A stretch of DNA of 31,908 nucleotides from an uncultured Bacteroidota bacterium (lineage in GTDB: Bacteria > Bacteroidota > Bacteroidia > UBA7662), in the NCBI GenBank assembly GCA_903908015.1, contig CAIVQI010000100.1, positions 1 through 31,908 on the forward strand, in the 5' to 3' direction. The position numbers and the translations under genes were made by a program. The notes beneath the pieces are model-generated. The model saw nothing but the letters and a program-made list of their open reading frames with translations, was not told where the DNA came from and ran no database searches. This document shows, in pieces, positions 1 to 13,065 of the stretch (its first letter is position 1; each line of letters begins with the position of its first letter).

Positions 1-1446
1 CAGTTGTTATTGGGGGCTTACTCCGCCCTCAATCGTCAGGTTGCCAGAAAGCAAGTTCAGATGTTTGCACGGCACGAGATGGTGGATGTGGTCGTGATCG
101 ACGGCAAGGCTCGGGGCATTATTGCGCGGGATTTGGTGACTGGCAAATTAGAACGACATGGTGCACATGCTGTTGTATTAGCGAGTGGGGGCTATGGCAA
201 TGTGTTTTATTTATCGACCAACGCCATGGGCTCAAATGTAACAGCAGCCTGGAAGGCCCATAAGAAGGGAGCGTTTTTTGGCAATCCGTGCTTTACCCAG
301 ATTCACCCCACTTGTTTGCCTCAATCAGGTGAATATCAGTCCAAGCTCACCCTCATGTCGGAGTCGCTGCGTAATGATGGAAGGGTTTGGGTTCCGTTGC
401 GACAAGAGGACGCCCAAGCCATACGAGAAGGGAAGCGCACAGCTGCGCAATTGAAAGAGGAGGACCGCGATTATTTCCTCGAAAGAAAATATCCGGCATT
501 TGGAAACCTGGTTCCGCGCGATGTGGCCAGTCGCGCCGCCAAAGAAGCTTGTGATGACGGGAGAGGGGTTAATCCTACTGGTTTGGCAGTTTTTCTGGAT
601 TTTAGAGATGCCATCCAGCGGTTGGGTAAAGACGTGATCAGTGCACGTTATGGCAACCTCTTTGAAATGTATGAAAAAATAACAGGGGATAATCCGTATG
701 AAGTTCCCATGAAGATTTACCCCGCTGTGCATTACACCATGGGCGGTTTATGGGTGGATTATGATTTGATGACTACAGTTCCGGGTTTGTATGCGATTGG
801 TGAAGCCAATTTTAGCGATCATGGAGCCAATCGCCTAGGGGCTTCTGCACTCATGCAAGGACTCGCAGATGGCTATTTTGTGTTGCCTTATACCATAGGT
901 AACTATTTGGCCGATGAAATTCATACCCCTTCAATACCCATCGACCACGAGGCTTTTGCTGCTGCAGAAGCGAGGGCATCTGAATTATATCATCAGTTCC
1001 TTTCAATTAAAGGTAGTCAATCACCTGAGCGTTTACACAGAAATCTCGGGAAAATTATGTGGGAATATTGTGGCATGGCGCGTTCTGAAGAAGGTTTAAA
1101 GAAGGCATTAGGTATGATTGAAGAATTGAAAAATTCTTTCTGGACGGATCTTCAGGTTGGAGGAAGTGTGAACGAGTTTAATCCTGAGTTGGATAAGGCC
1201 ATGCGGGTGGCAGACTTTATTGAGCTCGGTGCGCTGATGATTCGAGATGCCTTAGACCGCAGCGAGTCTTGTGGTGGGCATTTCCGTGTGGAAAGCCAAA
1301 CACCAGAAGGCGAAGCCCTCCGCGACGACCAGAATGGGAATTATGTGGCAGCTTGGGCTTACCAAGGAGATAACGTGGCACCGGAGTTGCACAAAGAACC
1401 TTTGAACTTTGAAATTGTTAAACCTACTCAAAGAAGTTATAAGTGA
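1..1446 (+). CDS. sdhA: Succinate dehydrogenase/fumarate reductase flavoprotein subunit (5' end lies outside the window)
   Basis: Frame is open from base 1. Catalytic motifs [19 protein letters not shown] and [11 protein letters not shown], and C-terminal ESCGGHFR. Followed directly by the Fe-S subunit. Confidence 0.96.
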
Positions 1447-2210
1447 TGGGAAAAGAAACGATTGCCTTAACGCTTAAGGTTTGGCGTCAGAGCGGCCCGA
1501 CCGATAAGGGTAAATTCCAAACCTATTCATTGAATCAGGTTCCTGTACATGCCTCCTTCCTTGAAATGATGGATTTGTTGAATGAGCAATTGGTGGGCAA
1601 GGGAGAATCACCTGTGGCTTTCGATCATGATTGTCGCGAGGGAATCTGTGGCTCTTGCAGCATGTACATCAACGGACGTGCACATGGCACCCAGTCGGGT
1701 ACAACCACTTGTCAACTCCACATGAGGCATTTTCATGATGGGGAAACCATCACCATTGAGCCTTGGCGTGCAGCACCTTTTCCTGTTATCCGGGATTTGG
1801 TCGTTGACCGCTCCGCGTTTGATACAATCATGCAGGCAGGTGGATATGTATCGGTGAACACAGGAAATGCACCTGATGGCAATGCTGTGCCTATCGCGAA
1901 AACGCATGCAGATGAGGCGTTTAATGCTGCGGCATGCATCGGATGCGGTGCTTGCGTTGCAGCCTGCAAGAATGCTTCAGCCATGTTGTTTGTATCGGCG
2001 AAGGTATCGCAATATGCGCTGCTGCCACAGGGACAGCCGGAGCGACGCGAGCGTGTACAGAAAATGGTATCGACCATGGATGAGCTGGGTTTTGGTGCCT
2101 GTACAAACACCGGGGCGTGCGAAGCTGAATGTCCAAAGGGTATCAGTGTAACCCATATAGCCCGTCTTAATCGTGAATATTTCGGTGCCCTATTGGGGCC
2201 TGGAGATTAA
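1446..2210 (+). CDS. sdhB: Succinate dehydrogenase/fumarate reductase iron-sulfur subunit
   Basis: CREGICGSC...[12 protein letters not shown] and [11 protein letters not shown] cluster motifs. ATG at 1446 overlaps the sdhA stop (TGATG). Confidence 0.96.
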
Positions 2211-2284
2211 TCATTTTTACCTCATCCGTAGGTCTAATTTTTTGAGGCCTGGATACGGAGAAGGGATTTTATTCGTTTTGATTT

Positions 2285-4966
2285 ATGCCGTTGCGCTCCC
2301 TGAATTTGGATCAGTTTTCATTAAGGCCAATCGGCAACCCGAATTTCATTATTCGGGTTTTGTCCTTGGTCCTGCCCTTTTGGAGCATGACTGCAGAGGC
2401 TACGCACAACAGGGGGGGCGAAATTACATTTCGGCAGTTGTCGGGACTCACATTCGAAATTACGGTCACGACCTACACCAAAGACCAGAATGCGGCGGAC
2501 CGACCCGATTTGCCTGTGTCGTTTAATTATGGCAATCCTGTTTTTATCGATACTGTACCCCGCCTGAGTAGGGTTTTCGTAGGTGCGGATATCGTGCGCA
2601 ATATTTATGTCACTACCCACACTTTTCCAGGGCCGTCAACCTACACCATCTCAGTGGCCGACCCAAACCGGGTGGCCAATGTCGTGAATATCCCCAATTC
2701 AGTGAATCTGATGTTTTACATTCAAACACAGCTCACTATTAGTCCGTTTTTGGGTGTAAACAGCTCTCCTGTATTGAATTTTCCGCCCATCGACTATGCC
2801 TGCATCAATCGGTTGTTTGTTCATAACCCGGGGGCAGTTGACCCCGATGGCGACTCGCTGTCTTATGAAATAACGCCATGCAGGGGCGACAACGGCCTTC
2901 CTGTGCCTGGTTTTTATTATCCGGCACCGCAAAATCAGCTCTATGTGGATGGCATTTATGGTGATTTTATTTGGAATACGCCCCAGCAGGCCGGTGAATT
3001 TAACTATGCCATGTTGATCAGGGAGTGGCGCAATGGGGTCAATATTTCATCGATCCTTCGCGACTTTCAAGTTACAGTAGCAGCTTGTAGCAATCGCCCC
3101 CCCAATTTGCAAGTACCTCCCGATACCTGCGTGGTAGCGGGTAGTCCGCTGTTGCGTTCCATTACGGCCACCGATAGTGATGGCCAGGTCATTAGTTTGA
3201 GCGCGGCCGGCATGCCCTTTGCTCCGCCACGTGGTGCCGTGAGTCAATCCCCCGCTACGTTCACCGACGTAACAGGCGTTGGTCCATTGTCATCGCCATT
3301 TGCTTGGAACACTACTTGTAGCCACATTCGTTTGGCGCCTTATCGGGTGGTTTTCAAAGCCATCGATAATGGAAGTCCACCCCTTACAGCCTATGGCGTG
3401 TGGAATATTCGCGTCATCGCACCGGCGGTCACGGGTGTTGTTGCCACGCCACAGCCCGCAGCCATTAGGGTCAATTTCAATCCCCATGCTTGCACCTCGG
3501 CCCTAGGATACCGCGTGTATCGCAAACAAGGCCCTGGTCCGTTCACTCCTGGATATTGCGAAACAGGGGTTCCAGCCTCCACGGGCTACGTTCTGATTGA
3601 TACACTGATGGGGCGAAATTCTACAGTCTATGTGGATGATAACGGCGGGCGTGGTTTGCCGCCGGGTGAGGAATTTTGCTACCGAATCACGGCATTTTTT
3701 AGTGAGAATGCCCTCAATCCACTCGCGGGATCAGAAAGTATTACTTCTGAGGAGGCTTGCGCACGGGTTCCGCTGAGTCTACCCGCTTTCACGCGCGTCA
3801 GTATTCGTACAACTGATCCTTTGAATGGATCTGTTTCTTTGGCATGGCTTGGGCCATCCGAATTGGACCAGGCTTTGTTTCCTCCGCCTTATCGTATCGA
3901 GTTGGTTCGGTCCTTGAGGCCAGATTTTCAAGCTTCTTCGACAGTTTTCATTAGAACATGGCCTGATTTTTCATCCTTGATGGCCGATACATCCCATATC
4001 GATACGCTGATCAATACCGTCCAAGGACCGCATTTTTACCGGATAAATCTGTATTCGGGTCCTGCATTCGGACTGGTTGGACGGAATACTTCCGCTTCTT
4101 CTGTCTTTCTGCAAGTACAAGCGCTCGATGCGCGGCTTCGATTGACCTGGACTTGGGATACGCCCTGGCAAAATGATTCTTTTTATGTTTATCGCGAGGG
4201 GCTTGCGGGTGTCCGACAATTAATTGGCGTTACCCCCCGCCCGGAATGGATTGATACTGCTTTGGTGAATGGTCGCAGCTATTGCTATTATGTGATGAGT
4301 CGCGGTGGTTATCGTGCTCTAGGCATGCCTGCGCTTTTATACAACGATGCCCAGCGGATGTGTGGTACCCCACGCGACTCAGTGCCTCCTTGTCCGCCTA
4401 CCCTCACCATAGCGACTGATTGCGATCGGTTCCAGAACCTATTAACATGGCAACAGAAACCTGAATGCGCTGCTGATTTATTGGAATGGAGAATATACTA
4501 CAGCGCAGGAGCGGGCTCACCTTTTACGCCTTTGACATCGGTTCCTGCGGACTCATTACCGGCTTGGTTGCATGGTGGATTGTCGTCGTCGGTAGCGGGC
4601 TGTTACCGAATAACGGCGGTGGACAGTGGAGGAAATGAAAGTGGGTTTGTGAACGAAGTATGCGCCGAGAATTGTTTGGAATATGAATTGCCGAATGTTT
4701 TTTCGCCAAATGCCGATGGAGTTAATGATGTATTTCGTCCGTTACCCGGTTGGCGATTTGTGCAATCTATTGATTTGTATGTCTATAACCGTTGGGGCCA
4801 GGTTGTATACCGAAGTATTGTACCTTCGATCGATTGGGATGGCACCAATATGCAAGGGGTGCCTGTTGAAGAAGGGACCTATTACTACAGGATCAGGATT
4901 AATTTCAGGGTTTTTGCGGGCATCGAGTCGGTCGACCGAGATGGAGTGGTTGGTATTTATAGATAG
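2285..4966 (+). CDS. Secreted surface protein with type IX secretion type-B (gliding motility-associated) C-terminal domain; cadherin-like and FN3-like repeats
   Basis: Signal peptide ending ...MTAEA then THNRGGEIT. C-terminal ELPNVFSPNADGVNDVF...VYNRWGQVVY...WDG...EGTYYY from base 4685. Internal AxDxD and AxDxGxPxL motifs and repeated CYRITA-type beta strands. Confidence 0.88.
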   Translation: MPLRSLNLDQFSLRPIGNPNFIIRVLSLVLPFWSMTAEATHNRGGEITFRQLSGLTFEITVTTYTKDQNAADRPDLPVSFNYGNPVFIDTVPRLSRVFVGADIVRNIYVTTHTFPGPSTYTISVADPNRVANVVNIPNSVNLMFYIQTQLTISPFLGVNSSPVLNFPPIDYACINRLFVHNPGAVDPDGDSLSYEITPCRGDNGLPVPGFYYPAPQNQLYVDGIYGDFIWNTPQQAGEFNYAMLIREWRNGVNISSILRDFQVTVAACSNRPPNLQVPPDTCVVAGSPLLRSITATDSDGQVISLSAAGMPFAPPRGAVSQSPATFTDVTGVGPLSSPFAWNTTCSHIRLAPYRVVFKAIDNGSPPLTAYGVWNIRVIAPAVTGVVATPQPAAIRVNFNPHACTSALGYRVYRKQGPGPFTPGYCETGVPASTGYVLIDTLMGRNSTVYVDDNGGRGLPPGEEFCYRITAFFSENALNPLAGSESITSEEACARVPLSLPAFTRVSIRTTDPLNGSVSLAWLGPSELDQALFPPPYRIELVRSLRPDFQASSTVFIRTWPDFSSLMADTSHIDTLINTVQGPHFYRINLYSGPAFGLVGRNTSASSVFLQVQALDARLRLTWTWDTPWQNDSFYVYREGLAGVRQLIGVTPRPEWIDTALVNGRSYCYYVMSRGGYRALGMPALLYNDAQRMCGTPRDSVPPCPPTLTIATDCDRFQNLLTWQQKPECAADLLEWRIYYSAGAGSPFTPLTSVPADSLPAWLHGGLSSSVAGCYRITAVDSGGNESGFVNEVCAENCLEYELPNVFSPNADGVNDVFRPLPGWRFVQSIDLYVYNRWGQVVYRSIVPSIDWDGTNMQGVPVEEGTYYYRIRINFRVFAGIESVDRDGVVGIYR

Positions 4967-4977
4967 GTCATTCAGGT

Positions 4978-5577
4978 ATGTTTACAGGCATAATTGAGAC
5001 GATGGGTGAGGTGGTATCGCGCGAGATACTGGGCACGAATATTGATTTGTGGATTCGGTCTGATTTAAGTGAATCGCTAAAGATTGATCAAAGTTTGGCG
5101 CACAATGGTGTATGCCTCACCGTGGTGGAGGTGGTTCATGGGATGCACAGGGTAACGGCCGTTGAAGAAACGATTCAACGCACCAATCTTGGGTTATGGA
5201 ATGAGCGCACCATAGTGAATCTTGAACGATGCGTACCAGCAGGTGGGCGATTGGATGGGCATATTGTTCAGGGTCATGTCGACCAGCTCCTCTATTGCGA
5301 ATCCGTTTCTGAGCGTAATGGAAGTTGGTGGATTGAATTTACTCTTCCTGAGTCCTACGCTCATTTGATCGTGGAAAAGGGTTCGGTTTGTTTGGATGGT
5401 ATTTCTTTAACGGTTGCCTCCCTCAGTGCGGGGTCGTTCGCTGTGGCCATCATTCCCTATACTTGGGCACATACCAACGTGCAATTCTGGAAGTCGGGTG
5501 CACAAGTTAATTTTGAAGCTGATATTTTAGGAAAATATGTTGCCAAGTGGATGGCACCGCATATTGGTGGGCGCTGA
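4978..5577 (+). CDS. ribC: Riboflavin synthase (alpha chain)
   Basis: Diagnostic N-terminus MFTGIIE, with SLAHNGVCLTV, GGRLDGHIVQGHVD, KGSVCLDGISLTV and VNFEADILGKYV. Confidence 0.96.
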   Translation: MFTGIIETMGEVVSREILGTNIDLWIRSDLSESLKIDQSLAHNGVCLTVVEVVHGMHRVTAVEETIQRTNLGLWNERTIVNLERCVPAGGRLDGHIVQGHVDQLLYCESVSERNGSWWIEFTLPESYAHLIVEKGSVCLDGISLTVASLSAGSFAVAIIPYTWAHTNVQFWKSGAQVNFEADILGKYVAKWMAPHIGGR

Positions 5578-6387: not shown

Positions 6388-6481
6388 TATGTCACTTTAA
6401 ACGATTGAGTGAATGAAAAGTTCAATCAACCTCAAAAAAAAATATCTTGCGCTCAGAACAGACCAGATTAGAAAAGTCCAG

Positions 6482-7060
6482 ATGAATCACGATGAGTTGC
6501 AGCGCCTTCCTGTAGAGTTGAATAACCCATGGAGAACCCTTTCTTCCTCTAATGTATATGATAATCCGTGGATTACCTTAACGGAATTTCAAGTGCTGAA
6601 TCCAGCAGGAAATCCGGGTATTTATGGGAGGGTACATTTCAAAAATATGGCAATTGGAATTGTGGCACTCGATGACGATGGTTGGATCAGTTTGGTTGGT
6701 CAATACCGGTACACCATCGATCGCTATTCATGGGAGATTCCAGAAGGAGGAGGACATCACGATGTTGACCCCTTAACTTCTGCTCAAAGGGAATTGCTTG
6801 AAGAGACAGGTTTAAAAGCTGGTCAATGGGAGTTGTTGCTTCAAATGCATCTTTCCAATAGTGTTACTGATGAATTTTGCCAGGTATATTTGGCCACCGA
6901 GCTCCAGCAATTTGAAGCGGAACCCGAGGAGACGGAACAGTTGAAATACCTCAAGTTACCCTTATCGGAGGCTTGGCAAAGAGTAAAGTCGGGGGAGATT
7001 ACCGATGCCATCACTGTGGCATCCTTACAGGCCATGATGCTGCGACAGGCGGGACTATAG
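6482..7060 (+). CDS. NUDIX hydrolase (ADP-ribose pyrophosphatase-like)
   Basis: LVGQYRY...WEIPEGGG...AQRELLEETGL Nudix box. Start placed at ATG 6482 because the longer ORF from 6413 runs through AT-rich promoter-like sequence; the start is uncertain. Confidence 0.88.
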   Translation: MNHDELQRLPVELNNPWRTLSSSNVYDNPWITLTEFQVLNPAGNPGIYGRVHFKNMAIGIVALDDDGWISLVGQYRYTIDRYSWEIPEGGGHHDVDPLTSAQRELLEETGLKAGQWELLLQMHLSNSVTDEFCQVYLATELQQFEAEPEETEQLKYLKLPLSEAWQRVKSGEITDAITVASLQAMMLRQAGL

Positions 7061-7146: not shown

Positions 7147-8376
7147 ATGAAAAAGACCTTTGAACGATCAGCCCGTATTGCTTTCTTTGCTCCATTGATT
7201 GTATCATCGATCATGTGCCTGGGTAGTGCGAAAGGGCAACCCGCACCGGGCAATAAAAAAACATCACCCTTCTTTAGAGCGCGTCAATTGGCCGAATCGG
7301 CTACACTGACGCAGCCCAGAAATATCATACTGATGATTGGCGATGGAATGGGTGCCAGCCAAATCTATGCAGGCATGGTAGCGGGCCGACAAGAGTTGAA
7401 CCTCGAACGATTTCGGCATTTGGGATTTAGTAAGACTTACGCCTTCGATGACCTCATCACCGATTCTGGAGCTGGCGCTACCGCCTTCAGCATTGGTAAA
7501 AAGGCTTTTAATGGAGCCATTGGCGTGGATTCCGATACCATGGCCTGCGAAACCATTTTGGAAACAGCGGCGCGCATGGGCAAAAAGACTGGATTGGTAG
7601 CCACTTCTTCAATCACGCACGCCACGCCTGCATCATTTGTGGCTCATGTACCGGACCGTGAGATGCATGAGGAAATTGCACGTCAAATTACAGGGAGTAG
7701 GGTTGACTTGTTGATTGGGGCGGGAAAAAAATATTTCGAACAACGAAAAGATGGACGGGCACTCACAGCCAATATGCGCGAACGGGGTTTTTATACGGTA
7801 TTCGATTCAATCACCCTCACCCAAATACCAAAAGGAAATCGTTTGGCGGCACTACTATGGGACAAAGATGCACCCAAAATGAGCGAGGGTCGGGGTGATT
7901 TTTTGCCCAACGCAACCCGCTTGGCAATAGATCATTTGAATGATACTGCTAAGGGTTTCTTTTTGATGGTTGAAGGATCCCAAATTGATTGGGGTGGTCA
8001 CGCTAATGATGCCGATTATATTGTCCAAGAGATGCTCGATTTTGATCGGGCCATTGGGGCAGCACTCGACTTTGCTCAGCGCGATGGGCAAACATTAGTG
8101 GTTGTGACGGCCGACCATGAAACTGGTGGGTTTGCCATTAATGGGGGTGATATGGCCTCGGGTCGGATCGAGGGTGCTTTCACCACCAAAAAGCATACGG
8201 GGGTGATGGTTCCCGTTTTTGCATATGGACCTGGTGCACATGCATTCACGGGCATCCAGGATAATACCTCGATGTACAAGCATATGATGAAATTGTGGGG
8301 TTATAAAGCAAATGCCCCATGGCCTTGGCGAAACAGTGCACCAGAGCAGCCACGACGCAGTGATGTTGTTCGGTAG
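7147..8376 (+). CDS. phoA: Alkaline phosphatase (PhoA family), secreted
   Basis: MIGDGMG, TDSGAGATA (catalytic Ser), THATPASF, VEGSQIDWGGHAND, TADHETGG and HTGVMVP metal ligands. N-terminal signal peptide. Confidence 0.93.
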   Translation: MKKTFERSARIAFFAPLIVSSIMCLGSAKGQPAPGNKKTSPFFRARQLAESATLTQPRNIILMIGDGMGASQIYAGMVAGRQELNLERFRHLGFSKTYAFDDLITDSGAGATAFSIGKKAFNGAIGVDSDTMACETILETAARMGKKTGLVATSSITHATPASFVAHVPDREMHEEIARQITGSRVDLLIGAGKKYFEQRKDGRALTANMRERGFYTVFDSITLTQIPKGNRLAALLWDKDAPKMSEGRGDFLPNATRLAIDHLNDTAKGFFLMVEGSQIDWGGHANDADYIVQEMLDFDRAIGAALDFAQRDGQTLVVVTADHETGGFAINGGDMASGRIEGAFTTKKHTGVMVPVFAYGPGAHAFTGIQDNTSMYKHMMKLWGYKANAPWPWRNSAPEQPRRSDVVR

Positions 8377-8459
8377 CGGGGTTTGTTCGCTTGGAAGTTC
8401 CGTTCTTCATCCCCAGCAAAGGCATCAGGTGGTGCGCGGTAGGAGTATGTTATGTGGCC

Positions 8460-8636
8460 CTAATGAGGCTTCGATCGCTTCCTACACGCATCACTGCAGT
8501 GGGTTACCTCATCCCAGCACCGCATCCACTTTTTGCGCCAGCTAAATGGTCTTCCGCACACACGACATTCCTTTTCGGGAAGATGCGGTTTTCGGTAGAT
8601 TGGTCCACTGTGGGAGACCCTACGTTTATTGGTCAT
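8460..8636 (-). CDS. DUF2256-family small Cys-rich protein (58 aa; below the ORF-track cutoff)
   Basis: Hand translation: MTNKRRVSHSGPIYRKPHLPEKECRVCGRPFSWRKKWMRCWDEVTHCSDACRKRSKPH*. It matches the LPxKxCxxCGRPFxWRKKW...WDEVxxCSxxCR pattern. Confidence 0.88.
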   Translation of the reverse strand: MTNKRRVSHSGPIYRKPHLPEKECRVCGRPFSWRKKWMRCWDEVTHCSDACRKRSKPH

Positions 8637-8876
8637 GACCTATTTCGGCTTCGGTTTCGAACTTTTTTCCATGTTTGCGCAAAATATGAACTGAATACGC
8701 CCGACATTCGGCACTTCCTTTGATCGCCCATCATTCTTTGCGCGCGTTTACCGCTTCAACATCAGGAACTACGATCGGATGGGGATCATCGACCCCGGAC
8801 TTACAAGCATATCGGAAAGGAGCAATTTTAGGTTCGTGTAGATGGCGGAGTTGAATAATGGCCAGGCATGAGTCGA

Positions 8877-9857
8877 CTATGTCCCAAATACTTCGGCAAG
8901 CATGCAGCGGGCCGAGCCGCCACCCATGCGTTCGATAAGGGGAATGTCGAGAATAATGGGCTTCAAGAGTCCAGAAATCAGTTGGCGCTGCTGTTCGGTG
9001 AATGCATTCCATGCTGTCCGCGAAACCACCAGATGTTGCCCTCCGTCTGTGTTTTGCACCTCCAAGACATTGGCGCAAAACGATCCCATTTGATCGTCAT
9101 TTATTTCTATGAGCGTTCTGTTGTGGCGCATGAGTTGGTTTCTGATTGTAGAAACCCCAGTTTGCTCGATTACATCAAGGCACGCAATGGCAAGGGTGGG
9201 CCCCACAGACAATACCACATTGGTGTGGTATGGGGGATCCCCAAATTTATCGTTGGTCAACATAAATATCAAATCATAATCGAGGTGCTTCGCCACCAAT
9301 TCGGCTGTGTTGCGGTGGGTGCGCGGCGAATCTGTGGCAAAAACTACATGGTGTTGGTGATCAAAAACCAGGCTGCCTGTGCCTTCCAGGAACTGATTGG
9401 CTTCAGCCTGGGATCGTAAATCCAAACCCATATTGAATCCCATTGATTCCAAAGCAGCCACATGGGTGGGGTCGATTTCAGCTCGGCGGTTTTCGGCCAT
9501 CATCGGATACAAAATGTATTGGCCACCCTGATGCGTACTGAACCAATTGTTCAGAAAAACAGCATCGGGTTTAGGTGGATGTGGATTGTCGTACCAAACA
9601 GTGACTTGAACGCCTGCGGATTGTATGCGCGCCACACTTTGGTCGAATTCAAGCATTGCGCGCTGTGCAATTTGGTCGTGGTTGGTTAATGGGTTCCTCA
9701 GGACTTCATCTGGATTTAAAAAAGGGGGATTTATGTCGGTTTGAAATGAATGAGGGGATAATTTCTTCTGAAATGCATTCGTAGCGCTTGTCTGTTCGTT
9801 GAAGCCAAACTGGGTCGGCCGGATCATCAATAGATGATTGGATATAACAGGATTCAT
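8877..9857 (-). CDS. ctlX: Amidinotransferase-superfamily hydrolase (CtlX-like citrulline-utilisation hydrolase)
   Basis: MIRPxxFxxNxQT, NNWFSTH, LYPMMAENRRAE, LEGTGSLVFD, YHTNVVL and IERMGGGSARCMLAEVF (catalytic Cys). Confidence 0.82.
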   Translation of the reverse strand: MNPVISNHLLMIRPTQFGFNEQTSATNAFQKKLSPHSFQTDINPPFLNPDEVLRNPLTNHDQIAQRAMLEFDQSVARIQSAGVQVTVWYDNPHPPKPDAVFLNNWFSTHQGGQYILYPMMAENRRAEIDPTHVAALESMGFNMGLDLRSQAEANQFLEGTGSLVFDHQHHVVFATDSPRTHRNTAELVAKHLDYDLIFMLTNDKFGDPPYHTNVVLSVGPTLAIACLDVIEQTGVSTIRNQLMRHNRTLIEINDDQMGSFCANVLEVQNTDGGQHLVVSRTAWNAFTEQQRQLISGLLKPIILDIPLIERMGGGSARCMLAEVFGT

Positions 9858-9937: not shown

Positions 9938-11251
9938 TTATGGCTTAAGTGCAGCGCTGTAGGTGTCGAGTGCGCGTTGCCGGGCAAAGGAATGTTCCAC
10001 CATCGGAGCCGGATAGCGAGAAGTGCCCCATTCGGGTACCCATTTGCGGATATAAAGACTATTTGGATCGAACTTTCGTGCTTGTTCAGAAGGGTTGAAT
10101 ACCCTGAAATAAGGTGCTGCATCGCACCCACTCCCCGCGGCCCATTGCCAGCCACCATTGTTCGAGGCCAGATCAAAGTCCAATAAGTGTCGGGCAAACC
10201 ATGCTGCGCCCCAGCGCCAATCAATCAGTAAATGTTTCGTGAGGAAGCTGGCCGTCACCATACGCACCCTGTTGTGCATGAAGCCAGTATGGCGCAATTG
10301 ACGCATGCCTGCATCGACCAGCGGGTAGCCTGTAGTGCCGTGGCACCAACGTTCAAAGTCGGCTGGCGCATCCCTCCATGCGATTTGATCATAAGCCGGC
10401 TTAAAAGACCGTTCGGCTACGTACGGGAACTGAGCGAGGATCATTTGATAAAAATCACGCCAAATGAGCTCGTTCAGGAATGTGGCATTGAGGCGGCGCG
10501 CGCGTTGGGCGAGTAATCGGATGCTGATTGTGCCAAATCGAAGGTGAATGCCCAGCCTGGAAGTACCTTCAATATGTGGGAAATTCCGGCGAGCATCGTA
10601 ATGTGCGATGAGATCATCCTCAGTGTGGGTTGGCGGAATGCTGATGGCGGATGGTTTGAACCCAAGTTCTTGCAGGGTTGGCAGGGGTGTGCCGGGGTCT
10701 GTTACGAGTTGGCTGCTTTTAAGCAGTTCTGCACTGTTCCACTCCTGAACATGCTCCGCTTGGAGGGTGTTGAGCCATTTTCTGCTGTAGGGTGTATAAA
10801 CCGTGTATGGCTTGCCATCATCTTTCAATACTTCATGCGGTTCGCGCAGGACATGGTCTTTGTAGTCATGCCATGGGATACCATGCCGATGAAGCAGGGA
10901 TGCTATCTGGGCGTCGCGCTGTCGTGCATATGGCTCATAATCGCGGTTTGCATAAACCTCTGCTATTTTATGCTTTTGGAGTAACTCCGCCCAAATTTCT
11001 TCAGGCTTTCCATGCATGATACAAAGGCCGGCACCGGACTGCTGCAGGGTTTCATGGAGCGCCAACAAGGTATTATGTAGAAAATGCACACGGGCATCGT
11101 CATTTGATTCTAGACGATCCAGGATGTGTTTGTCGAAAATAAACAGAATCATCACCGGGCGCCCTGCTTTGAGTGCATGCCAAAGAGCGGTATTGTCCGA
11201 CAGCCGAAGGTCTCTTCGAAGCCAGCAAACACTTATAGGATAAACCGACAT
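9938..11251 (-). CDS. phr: Deoxyribodipyrimidine (CPD) photolyase
   Basis: WLRRDLRLSDN, TSRLGIHLRFGTIS, NELIWRDFY, TGYPLVDAGMRQL, MHNRVRMVTASFL and DFDLASNNGGWQW. The Trp triad (IAW, IDW, GGW) and the CPD-type Met and Asn are present. Confidence 0.95.
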   Translation of the reverse strand: MSVYPISVCWLRRDLRLSDNTALWHALKAGRPVMILFIFDKHILDRLESNDDARVHFLHNTLLALHETLQQSGAGLCIMHGKPEEIWAELLQKHKIAEVYANRDYEPYARQRDAQIASLLHRHGIPWHDYKDHVLREPHEVLKDDGKPYTVYTPYSRKWLNTLQAEHVQEWNSAELLKSSQLVTDPGTPLPTLQELGFKPSAISIPPTHTEDDLIAHYDARRNFPHIEGTSRLGIHLRFGTISIRLLAQRARRLNATFLNELIWRDFYQMILAQFPYVAERSFKPAYDQIAWRDAPADFERWCHGTTGYPLVDAGMRQLRHTGFMHNRVRMVTASFLTKHLLIDWRWGAAWFARHLLDFDLASNNGGWQWAAGSGCDAAPYFRVFNPSEQARKFDPNSLYIRKWVPEWGTSRYPAPMVEHSFARQRALDTYSAALKP

Positions 11252-11289
11252 GGTTGTTTGAAGGTTTTCTTGATTATTAAAATCCGTAA

Positions 11290-12000
11290 TCAGCCTCTGA
11301 GGCTTCCCATACCCCCATCTACCCCTATAATCTGACCAGTTATCCAGCCAGATTCGGGTGACAATAGAAATACTGCTGCCGAGGCCGTGTCATGGGGCTG
11401 ACCAACGCGTCCAAGTGGGTGCCTTTTGTCGCCCGCTAACCTTTTTTCATCGCTGTTCAGTAAGGGTGCAGCCAGAGGGGTATCGGTGAGAGAGGGCGCC
11501 AGGGCATTAACCCGTATGCTTGAGGAAGCAGACTCTGCGGCCAGCGAGCGGGTAAGTCCTTCCAATGCAGATTTAGCGGAAGCAATCGAGCTATGAAACG
11601 GCATGCCCGTTTGCGCGGCAACGGTACTGAAGAATACCACAGATGAATCCCCCGCTTTTTTGAGCCTTGAATAAGCGGAGCGAACAGCGCGTACCGCCCC
11701 CAAGAAATTGAGCTTCCATTCGTTGAGGTAGTCGGCGTCGGTTAACCGGGTAAAGGGTTTTAGGGTGATGCTGCCCGGTGCATATACCAATCCGTGCAGT
11801 TGCTCGGGCAGGTGATCAAGGGGTAAATCTACATCCCCAACGGCGTCCCAAAATGTCCAATGGTCTCCATAAGTATCCGGTTTTTGGCGACCAAATGTCC
11901 AAACATTTGCTCCCTCATGCCGAGACATTCGTGCAATCTCCGCACCTATGCCAGTGCGAGCGCCCACAATCAGGATGTTCCGTTGTACTAACCTGGCCAT
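11290..12000 (-). CDS. Short-chain dehydrogenase/reductase, atypical (IxxxK in place of YxxxK)
   Basis: VGARTGIG Rossmann motif, NFLG, catalytic-Ser region FFSTVAA, SIASAK, RVNALAPSLTDT and ITGQIIGVDGG. ATG overlaps the folE stop (TAATG). Confidence 0.9.
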   Translation of the reverse strand: MARLVQRNILIVGARTGIGAEIARMSRHEGANVWTFGRQKPDTYGDHWTFWDAVGDVDLPLDHLPEQLHGLVYAPGSITLKPFTRLTDADYLNEWKLNFLGAVRAVRSAYSRLKKAGDSSVVFFSTVAAQTGMPFHSSIASAKSALEGLTRSLAAESASSSIRVNALAPSLTDTPLAAPLLNSDEKRLAGDKRHPLGRVGQPHDTASAAVFLLSPESGWITGQIIGVDGGMGSLRG

Positions 12001-12650
12001 TATTGTGCTGGCATTTCAAGATAGCGGAGAAATTCGGATCTGGTGGCCTCATCCAGGAAGCGGCCGCTGTAATCGGATGTGATGGTTCTACTTTGACGGT
12101 CTTGCACCCCGCGCATGCTCACGCACATGTGGTGGGCGTCTATAACCACGGCCACGTCCTCTGTTTTAAGAACACTTCGGAGTTCATTGGCGATTTGCCG
12201 GGTGAGGCGTTCCTGCACCTGGGGTCTTCGTGCAAAATAATCGACGATCCGGTTTATCTTGCTCAAACCGATGACCTGTCCGTTGCTGATATAGGCTACA
12301 TGTGCTTTGCCCACGATGGGCACGAAATGGTGTTCACAATGGGAGTAGACGGCAATTTCCTTCTCAACCAGCATTTGCTTATACTGGTATTTGTTGTCAA
12401 ATAGCGCGACACGCGGTTTGTTATCAGGATTGAGGCCACTGAAAATCTCTTCGACATACATTTTGGCGACGCGATATGGAGTTCCTCTGAGGCTATCATC
12501 GCTCAGGTCCAGTCCCAAGACATGCATGATTTCTCGGAAATGCTTTTCGATCAATTCGATTTTGAGCTCGTTGTCGCGTTCAAACGCATCTTGGCGGAGC
12601 GGTGTATCCATTGATCCAGGTGCATGATGGTCGCCTAACTCTTCCATCAT
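12000..12650 (-). CDS. folE: GTP cyclohydrolase I
   Basis: [35 protein letters not shown] and HMCVSMRGV. Start placed at ATG 12650, 7 nt after the PTPS stop; the ORF-track start 12695 overlaps PTPS. Confidence 0.95.
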
Positions 12651-12657
12651 TCGGTGT

Positions 12658-13065
12658 TCATCCTTCACATTCAACATAATTTCGTTCGGTTTCATATAAG
12701 GTTACTTTTAAATCATGAGCAGGGTCAATTTCAGGGCGCAAAATGACCCAAATGACTTGTGCAATGTTCTCTGCAGTGGGGACAAGCGTTTTAAACTCCG
12801 CAGTATCCAGGTTGAGGTTTTGATGATCAAATCGTTCTACCACGCAACGGTCGATGAGCTCAGCCAACCACTTTAAGTCCACCACATAGCCTGTATCGGC
12901 GTCGACTTCGCCGCGCACGTGCACCAGTAGGTTGTAATTATGTCCGTGGTAATTGGCATTAGCGCATTTGCCATACACTGCATTGTTGCGCTGCTCATCC
13001 CAATCTGGCCTATACAGGCGGTGGGCGGCATTGAAATGGGATTTACGGGTTACGGTAATTTTCAC
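12658..13065 (-). CDS. 6-pyruvoyl-tetrahydropterin synthase family protein (COG0720), PTPS-II-type signature
   Basis: [19 protein letters not shown] (C-x5-HGH), [16 protein letters not shown] and LYETERN. GTG start. Confidence 0.92.

Follow-up and report, generated by a model that had tools for sequence, protein, structure and literature searches.

We analyzed a window of 31,908 nucleotides (positions 1 to 31,908 of contig CAIVQI010000100.1, assembly GCA_903908015.1) from an uncultured Bacteroidota bacterium, in which genes for a 6-pyruvoyl-tetrahydropterin synthase (PTPS), GTP cyclohydrolase I (FolE), a short-chain dehydrogenase/reductase (SDR), and a cyclobutane pyrimidine dimer (CPD) photolyase (phr) follow one another on the minus strand. 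On the evidence below, we lean toward a reading in which the first three genes, with a new, His-type SDR among their products, encode a biopterin-like pterin branch, and this branch is part of a Bacteroidota gene set for light and photo-oxidative stress. In the proposed pathway, FolE would make dihydroneopterin triphosphate, PTPS would turn it into 6-pyruvoyl-tetrahydropterin, and the SDR, using NADPH, would reduce that compound to an unconjugated pterin resembling biopterin or sepiapterin, a step in which His136 may stand in for the missing catalytic Tyr. The module would be part of a sunlight-defense gene set of photolyases, DASH-type cryptochromes (Cry-DASH), carotenoid enzymes, and peroxidases, which would account for its position immediately 5' of the gene for a class I-type CPD photolyase that is in other respects ordinary. 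We infer the substrate of the SDR, its pterin product, and the role of that product, which may be that of an antioxidant, UV-A screen, cofactor, or chromophore. The features of the module are as follows.

12658-13065, minus strand: PTPS, predicted PTPS-II type, 135 aa, GTG start (PF01242, E 2e-33)
12940-12966, minus strand: PTPS motif C34-x5-H40-G-H42 (CANANYHGH), read from the translation
12000-12650, minus strand: FolE, ATG start (NF006824, TIGR00063)
11290-12000, minus strand: atypical NAD(P)-binding SDR, 236 aa, without the catalytic Tyr (adh_short_C2, E 4e-40)
11572-11595, minus strand: SDR active-site segment H136-S-S-I139-A-S-A-K143, from pairwise and PDB alignments
11252-11289, minus strand: SDR-photolyase spacer, 38 nt, from reading the sequence
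9938-11251, minus strand: class I-type CPD photolyase, 437 aa (PF00875, DNA_photolyase, E 7e-49; PF03441, FAD_binding_7, E 5e-74)

Conservation and layout of the PTPS-FolE-SDR triad

We assembled 80 loci that hold an ortholog of the SDR, 70 of them with enough upstream DNA. PTPS, FolE, and the SDR are adjacent and co-directional in 40 of these 70, including loci from Runella, Spirosoma, Fibrella, Aquirufa, and Emticicia (Spirosomataceae among the families covered), from Algoriphagus and other Cyclobacteriaceae, and from Marivirga, Roseivirga, and Pelobium. Because the genes outside the triad vary widely, the three genes constitute a conserved unit. A flavin-reductase-like gene (PF01613) is a frequent neighbor downstream of the SDR. 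As a separate observation, a gene for a 146-aa protein without a family match lies just 3' of the SDR and co-directional with it in one locus (L016:7762-8202, plus strand) and 14 others; these are loci of the Cyclobacteriaceae/Marivirga type, and the gene is often followed by flavin-reductase-like and metallo-beta-lactamase-fold genes.

In the window, the PTPS stop codon (TGA, 12660-12658) is followed after 7 nt by the FolE ATG at 12650; an alternative in-frame FolE ATG, upstream at 12695, would overlap PTPS. The sequence TAATG at 12002-11998 joins FolE to the SDR, the TAA of the one sharing a base with the ATG of the other. A preliminary description of this DNA had listed four co-oriented genes, spaced 7 nt apart at the first junction, overlapping in TAATG at the second, and spaced 38 nt apart at the third, which the open reading frame (ORF) listing and our reading of the sequence found to be exact, and Pfam and NCBIfam models returned the same four gene identities. 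The module lies near the end of a one-way run of minus-strand genes: sufB-C-D-S-E-T, fabH, PTPS, folE, the SDR gene, phr, and a ctlX-like gene. A terminator scan found no minus-strand terminator-like hairpin between the four genes. Scanning the window for sigma-70 promoters and terminators gave no more sites than in shuffled sequence; Bacteroidota promoters fall outside the coverage of the sigma-70 scan, which therefore says little on promoters. We predict from this sequence that PTPS, folE, the SDR gene, and phr are co-transcribed. The source genome (G000) comprises 2.2 Mb on 395 contigs and is 97.7% complete, and in homolog searches the relatives of its genes are Bacteroidota.

Proposed pterin branch and the Tyr-less SDR

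The closest solved relatives of the window PTPS are the rat and human enzymes (1B66 and 3I2B, E ~1e-28), to which it aligns over its full length without gaps. Rat Cys42, Asp88-His89, Glu133, and His23, His48, and His50 are all matched in this alignment; we take the Cys, the Asp-His pair, and the Glu to be catalytic and the three His to bind zinc. The motif C34-ANANY-H40-G-H42 has the form C-x5-HGH, and the reported signatures are C-x5-HGH for PTPS-II, C-x3-HGH for QueD, and E-x2-HGH for PTPS-III (PMC5041015). The assignment to PTPS-II made in the preliminary description is thus borne out by the motif together with the likeness to rat and human PTPS. Judged by these sequence features, the protein is a PTPS of the PTPS-II (biopterin; COG0720 subfamily II), animal type, with the predicted activity of producing 6-pyruvoyl-tetrahydropterin from dihydroneopterin triphosphate.

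FolE scored above the cut-offs of both of its models (281.6 bits against 202 for NF006824 and 233.3 against 181.6 for TIGR00063). It is the sole copy in the genome, in which PF01227 has a single match, and must therefore serve folate plus whatever PTPS makes. FolB and FolA are encoded elsewhere in the genome, so that folate synthesis needs FolE and neither PTPS nor the SDR. Two folate-related candidates were rejected: a PTPS-III bypass of FolB, given the Ala at the Glu position of the motif and the presence of FolB, and a role for the SDR as a substitute dihydrofolate reductase, given the presence of FolA. A pterin-4a-carbinolamine dehydratase is also present in the genome.

An alternative would make PTPS the queuosine enzyme QueD, with PTPS and FolE forming a pair for 7-cyano-7-deazaguanine (preQ0) synthesis. 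The QueD model TIGR03367 gives a weak match (67 bits against a cut-off of 89), the genome encodes Tgt, and animal PTPS can make some 6-carboxytetrahydropterin (CPH4). Nevertheless, no QueC turned up in the genome, and the same class is nearly devoid of it (0/16, 1/22, and 0/8 genomes in families f2, f3, and f12, respectively), the motif is C-x5-HGH instead of C-x3-HGH, and E. coli QueD matches the window PTPS at an E value of only ~1e-7 compared to 1e-28 for rat PTPS. We therefore reject QueD as the identity of this protein and give the alternative almost no credence. Tgt without QueC points to salvage of queuosine precursors, in place of preQ0 synthesis, in this lineage. With folate provided for by FolB and FolA and queuosine synthesis lacking QueC, PTPS and the SDR are left unexplained by either pathway, in agreement with the earlier proposal that the module makes a non-folate pterin.

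The reductase had been described as unusual, and it is: in pairwise and PDB alignments, Ile139 stands opposite the catalytic Tyr of YxxxK, and His136 lies seven residues before Lys143 (H-x6-K). Across 66 homologs of the SDR, no substitution is seen at Asn98, Ser125, His136, or Lys143, every one has Ile or Val where the Tyr would be, and the NNAG motif is replaced by Y-x-P-G. The glycine-rich segment G13-x3-G17-x-G19, the dinucleotide motif of classical SDRs (TGxxxGxG), is invariant or nearly so, and of the catalytic tetrad Asn-Ser-Tyr-Lys three members are kept (Asn98, Ser125, and Lys143) and the Tyr is missing. The pattern F-H-[AST]-S-[IV]-x-x-x-K was retained in all 25 further loci, where SDR identity is only 39-53%. 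The search returned 6743 homologs, mainly from Bacteroidota, of which the best (55-86% identity) are named only "SDR family oxidoreductase"; we regard this label and "3-oxoacyl-ACP reductase", the public names in use, as uninformative and probably wrong.

No NCBIfam model reached its cut-off against the SDR, and sepiapterin reductase (e.g., TIGR01500) was not among its 25 best NCBIfam models or 60 best PDB chains. The AlphaFold model (pLDDT, the predicted local distance difference test, of 91) has a generic classical SDR (Rossmann) fold, with template modeling (TM) scores of 0.87-0.90 to NADPH-bound SDRs. A fold search of the PDB with this model returned only generic ketoreductases (RasADH, noroxomaritidine reductase, and tropinone reductases) and no match specific to pterin reductases, so that the fold does not reveal the substrate.

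Loss of the catalytic Tyr throughout the family, together with Y-x-P-G in place of NNAG, would also fit a non-catalytic SDR that binds NADPH as a sensor or regulator, in the manner of NmrA or HSCARG, and tunes pterin synthesis or the photolyase. We consider this very unlikely, as Asn98, Ser125, Lys143, and His136 are invariant, the substrate-side loops (KRHPLGRVG and PSLTDTPLA) are strongly conserved, and the fold is that of a classical SDR, neither extended nor atypical. The invariant residues and conserved loops instead indicate a functional active site.

Association with photolyase and light-stress genes

A tie between the pterin genes and photolyase, as proposed in the preliminary description, recurs across Bacteroidota, where photolyase and light-response genes accompany these genes in various orders. 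In 12 of the 80 SDR loci, a photolyase-family gene is present in the same locus; by a rough estimate (~3 photolyase-family genes per ~5-Mb genome, with related genomes not independent), chance would yield well under 1 such locus. In 8 of those 12, the class I ortholog starts no more than 1.6 kb downstream of the SDR, mostly without PTPS-FolE upstream. We also drew an even sample of 300 genomes from the phylum, counting photolyase orthologs at E <= 1e-60. The SDR was found in 44 of these genomes and a photolyase ortholog in 108, and 39 of the 44 SDR-positive genomes have both. The SDR and photolyase genes lie within 6.5 kb of each other in 14 of 45 genomes (the source genome included), representing many genera.

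The composition of these clusters varies. Family f3 has a cluster (loci L099-L102, L104, and L106) with a TetR_C_23 regulator, an ABC1/UbiB-like kinase, a Cry-DASH, a photolyase-like protein, a DUF2805/TIGR03643 protein, and the SDR, with a CPD photolyase further along. FolE is found 3' of the SDR in three f3 genomes, as a second copy beside the housekeeping FolE, and other f3 genomes have the SDR, glutathione peroxidase, TspO, and an SRPBCC protein followed by photolyase. Genome G148 has a string of ECF sigma factor, crtI, crtB, NUDIX, PTPS, photolyase, and peroxiredoxin genes, and its SDR adjoins another photolyase-like gene on a different contig. Taken together, these arrangements indicate that light and photo-oxidative-stress clusters include PTPS, FolE, or the SDR independently of one another and in differing orders.

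The photolyase next to the module matches most closely, among solved structures, the 8-hydroxy-5-deazaflavin (8-HDF) enzyme of A. nidulans (1OWL/1QNF, E 3e-88), followed by A. tumefaciens PhrA and the E. coli enzyme (1DNP, E 2e-75), with T. thermophilus photolyase also among the best PDB matches. Its scores fall below the equivalog cut-offs of both the 8-HDF type (TIGR03556, 363.9 against 884.6) and the E. coli type (NF007955, 322.6 against 506). Orthologs of 430-450 aa are present across Bacteroidota. E. coli Asn108 and Glu109, which presumably hold methenyltetrahydrofolate (MTHF), align with Tyr108 and Ala109 of the window protein. Of the A. nidulans residues that we take to line the 8-HDF pocket, Arg51 and Asp101 are kept as Arg54 and Asp104, and Lys248 is replaced by Arg238. 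By sequence, the enzyme belongs to the wider class I-type CPD photolyase family and resembles the 8-HDF class more than the MTHF class. CofH, the synthase of the deazaflavin FO, had no match in the genome and none at or above cut-off in 151 sampled Bacteroidota; the paired CofH-like matches of 290-330 bits in some families (two per genome) are probably the menaquinone (futalosine) enzymes MqnC and MqnE. An 8-HDF antenna made in-house is therefore not supported. Possible second chromophores are flavin mononucleotide (FMN), scavenged FO, or something new, and the site may also hold none.

The module pterin, tailored by the Tyr-less SDR, could itself be the antenna or sensing chromophore of the adjacent photolyase, Cry-DASH, and photolyase-like proteins. 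PTPS, FolE, and the SDR each directly adjoin photolyase-family genes in several arrangements, and such a role would fit both a photolyase that resembles the 8-HDF class and lacks the MTHF-anchoring residues of E. coli and the missing CofH. On the other hand, 8-HDF-type pockets can hold FMN, as in Thermus, or stay empty, and the absorption of reduced unconjugated pterins lies at shorter wavelengths than that of MTHF and 8-HDF, and they are poorer antennas. Peroxidase, TspO, and carotenoid neighbors fit a general stress regulon equally well, and photolyase orthologs are widespread in genomes without the SDR. Work on cyanobacteria has proposed a pterin as the Cry-DASH chromophore (PMC3546692). 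We consider the antenna role improbable; the preliminary description had suggested it, and the analysis gave it no positive support, with photolyase common in the absence of the SDR and the window enzyme most like the 8-HDF rather than the MTHF class. In its broader form, the proposal would be that in Bacteroidota without FO synthase a PTPS-derived pterin, finished by the His-type SDR, is the chromophore of class I photolyases and Cry-DASH. This is a long shot; if true, photolyases would gain a new antenna class and the SDR superfamily a new catalytic variant.

A number of observations weigh against placing the biopterin-like branch in a light-stress gene set. Photolyase does not depend on the SDR, given that its orthologs are common without it: in family f2, 14 of 16 genomes have a photolyase ortholog and none has the SDR. 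Conversely, no photolyase ortholog at the above threshold was found in five SDR-positive genomes, and most SDR loci have no photolyase nearby. Only in the nearest relatives did the full four-gene order recur, namely in L009 (77-93% protein identity) and probably L030 (cut off upstream); the synteny survey upheld the PTPS-FolE-SDR order and not its extension to photolyase. (These two loci, VHAX01000010.1 and VHAW01000043.1, come from metagenome-assembled genomes labeled "Sphingomonadales bacterium"; their gene content and other homologs are those of Bacteroidota, and the labels look wrong.) Of 301 genomes, 300 encode PF01242 proteins, most often two each. PTPS-FolE pairs are found throughout the phylum, including lineages with few photolyases, which argues that the pair is not dedicated to light; phylum-wide, a second PTPS type (PTPS2) is followed by FolE in 23 of 29 loci, and sometimes by FabD or another SDR. 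The window has no light regulator or carotenoid (crt) gene, and the flanks of the module are housekeeping genes (the suf operon and fabH).

The pterin chemistry meets objections of its own. Neither by sequence nor by fold does the SDR specifically resemble sepiapterin reductase, PTR1, or DHPR, and to our knowledge all characterized pterin-side-chain reductases use the Tyr that this family is without. The sepiapterin reductase slot to which the preliminary description assigned the SDR is thus matched by its place in the gene string, and not by a sepiapterin reductase signature or the catalytic Tyr. The genome search for a pterin-dependent (aromatic amino acid) hydroxylase gave none. The genome also has a second PTPS-II (47% identical, motif CANPNMHGH) on contig C317, between a classical SDR of 261 aa with an intact YxxxK and FabD. 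For a step like that of sepiapterin reductase, this classical SDR is a candidate at least equal to the SDR of the module. The three genes of this locus (L002, C317:5055-8450) are as follows.

657-1442, plus strand: classical YxxxK SDR
1414-1941, plus strand: PTPS-II
1938-2834, plus strand: FabD

These objections suit an explanation in which the adjacency to photolyase is incidental, PTPS and FolE are housekeeping enzymes, and the substrate of the SDR, an enzyme of oxidative-stress defense, is no pterin but a flavin, quinone, lipid, or carotenoid-related carbonyl. The near-universal PTPS-FolE pairs, the housekeeping genes flanking the module, and the missing pterin-reductase signature all fit it, as do the recurrent neighbors of the SDR, which include a flavin-reductase-like protein, glutathione peroxidase, and TspO. 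In addition, the proximity of photolyase and PTPS in family f2 (1.6-3.7 kb from tandem PTPS genes) was discounted, because mqnA and mqnB lie between them on the opposite strand. What this explanation does not anticipate is that in 40 of 70 loci FolE is directly followed by the SDR (the two overlap by 1 nt in the window), and that family f3 has the reverse order, SDR then FolE, using a second FolE copy. A link between the SDR and FolE in two orders is hard to account for without a shared pathway, and we regard the incidental explanation as unlikely, though not negligible. The biopterin-like pterin branch within a light-stress gene set is the reading we retain.

Several other genes in the window and genome were noted. 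The gene after the photolyase (8877-9857, minus strand) encodes a DDAH/CtlX-like amidinohydrolase (308 bits against a CtlX cut-off of 334), and a ctlX-like gene with 60% identity is also found 3' of the photolyase in L009. On the opposite strand, ~3 kb away on the photolyase side of the module, are genes for a NUDIX hydrolase with a weak NudE-like match (6413-7060, plus strand) and an alkaline phosphatase (7147-8376, plus strand); 11 of 80 loci have a related NUDIX gene no more than ~6 kb from the SDR. A 110-aa ORF without a Pfam or NCBIfam match (8391-8723, plus strand) may be no gene. Riboflavin synthase, with two lumazine-binding domains, is encoded at 4978-5577 (plus strand), ~4.4 kb from the photolyase. 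Flavin- and lumazine-type antennas are known in other photolyases; here, the proximity is probably a coincidence. The second photolyase-family gene of the genome, at 1495-2739 (minus strand) of locus L004 (contig C127:810-3548), encodes a DASH-type cryptochrome that scores above the cut-off of TIGR02765 (348 bits); it adjoins proline dehydrogenase, and the end of the contig truncates it at the N-terminus.

Related systems and significance

The known pathway nearest to the module is the tetrahydrobiopterin route of animals, cyanobacteria, and Chlorobium, which it resembles in having FolE, the full PTPS-II catalytic set, and an SDR in the gene string. Three things set it apart: an SDR with H-x6-K in place of the catalytic Tyr found in sepiapterin reductase, a genome that yielded no aromatic amino acid hydroxylase, and the link of the module with clusters of photolyase and cryptochrome genes. 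The spacing of H-x6-K recalls that of the "divergent" enoyl-ACP reductase SDRs (FabI, InhA), in which Y-x6-K places the proton-donor candidate at the same distance from the Lys, and adh_short_C2 is the best Pfam model for the window SDR. Unlike those enzymes, it has His rather than Tyr at this position, and its sequence and fold are nearest to classical ketoreductases.

Two bacterial systems link pterins with light. In Pseudomonas, the LitR regulon includes light-induced folE-folX-folM (tetrahydromonapterin) and phrB-SDR clusters (PMC9758184). The likeness is that pterin-branch genes, a FolE copy and an SDR-type reductase, share a light response with a CPD photolyase; the differences are the phylum, the use of the epimerase FolX rather than PTPS-II, a FolM that contains the Tyr, and the lack of a LitR/CarH regulator in the window. 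Cyanobacterial pterin glycosides (biopterin glucoside and cyanopterin) have been proposed as UV-A screens as well as the Cry-DASH chromophore mentioned above (PMC3546692). There, too, an unconjugated pterin derived from GTP is linked with UV-A or blue light and a protein of the cryptochrome/photolyase family. The cyanobacterial link draws on physiology and inhibitors, that in Bacteroidota on gene clustering. A pteridine glycosyltransferase was not seen in our data, in which no search was aimed at one. Literature searches for an account of the Bacteroidota module turned up none.

Knowledge of bacterial biopterin-type pterins comes mainly from cyanobacteria and green sulfur bacteria, where their purpose is debated, and aerobic Bacteroidota are abundant in sunlit waters and soils. 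A module of PTPS-II, FolE, and SDR that is widespread in aerobic Bacteroidota, and found repeatedly within photolyase, cryptochrome, carotenoid, and peroxidase clusters, offers three testable handles. The first is the role of unconjugated pterins in light-exposed bacteria that are not phototrophic. The second is the second chromophore of Bacteroidota photolyases, given that they combine neither the MTHF site of E. coli nor an FO synthase. The third is the mechanism of an SDR in which His may replace the textbook catalytic Tyr.

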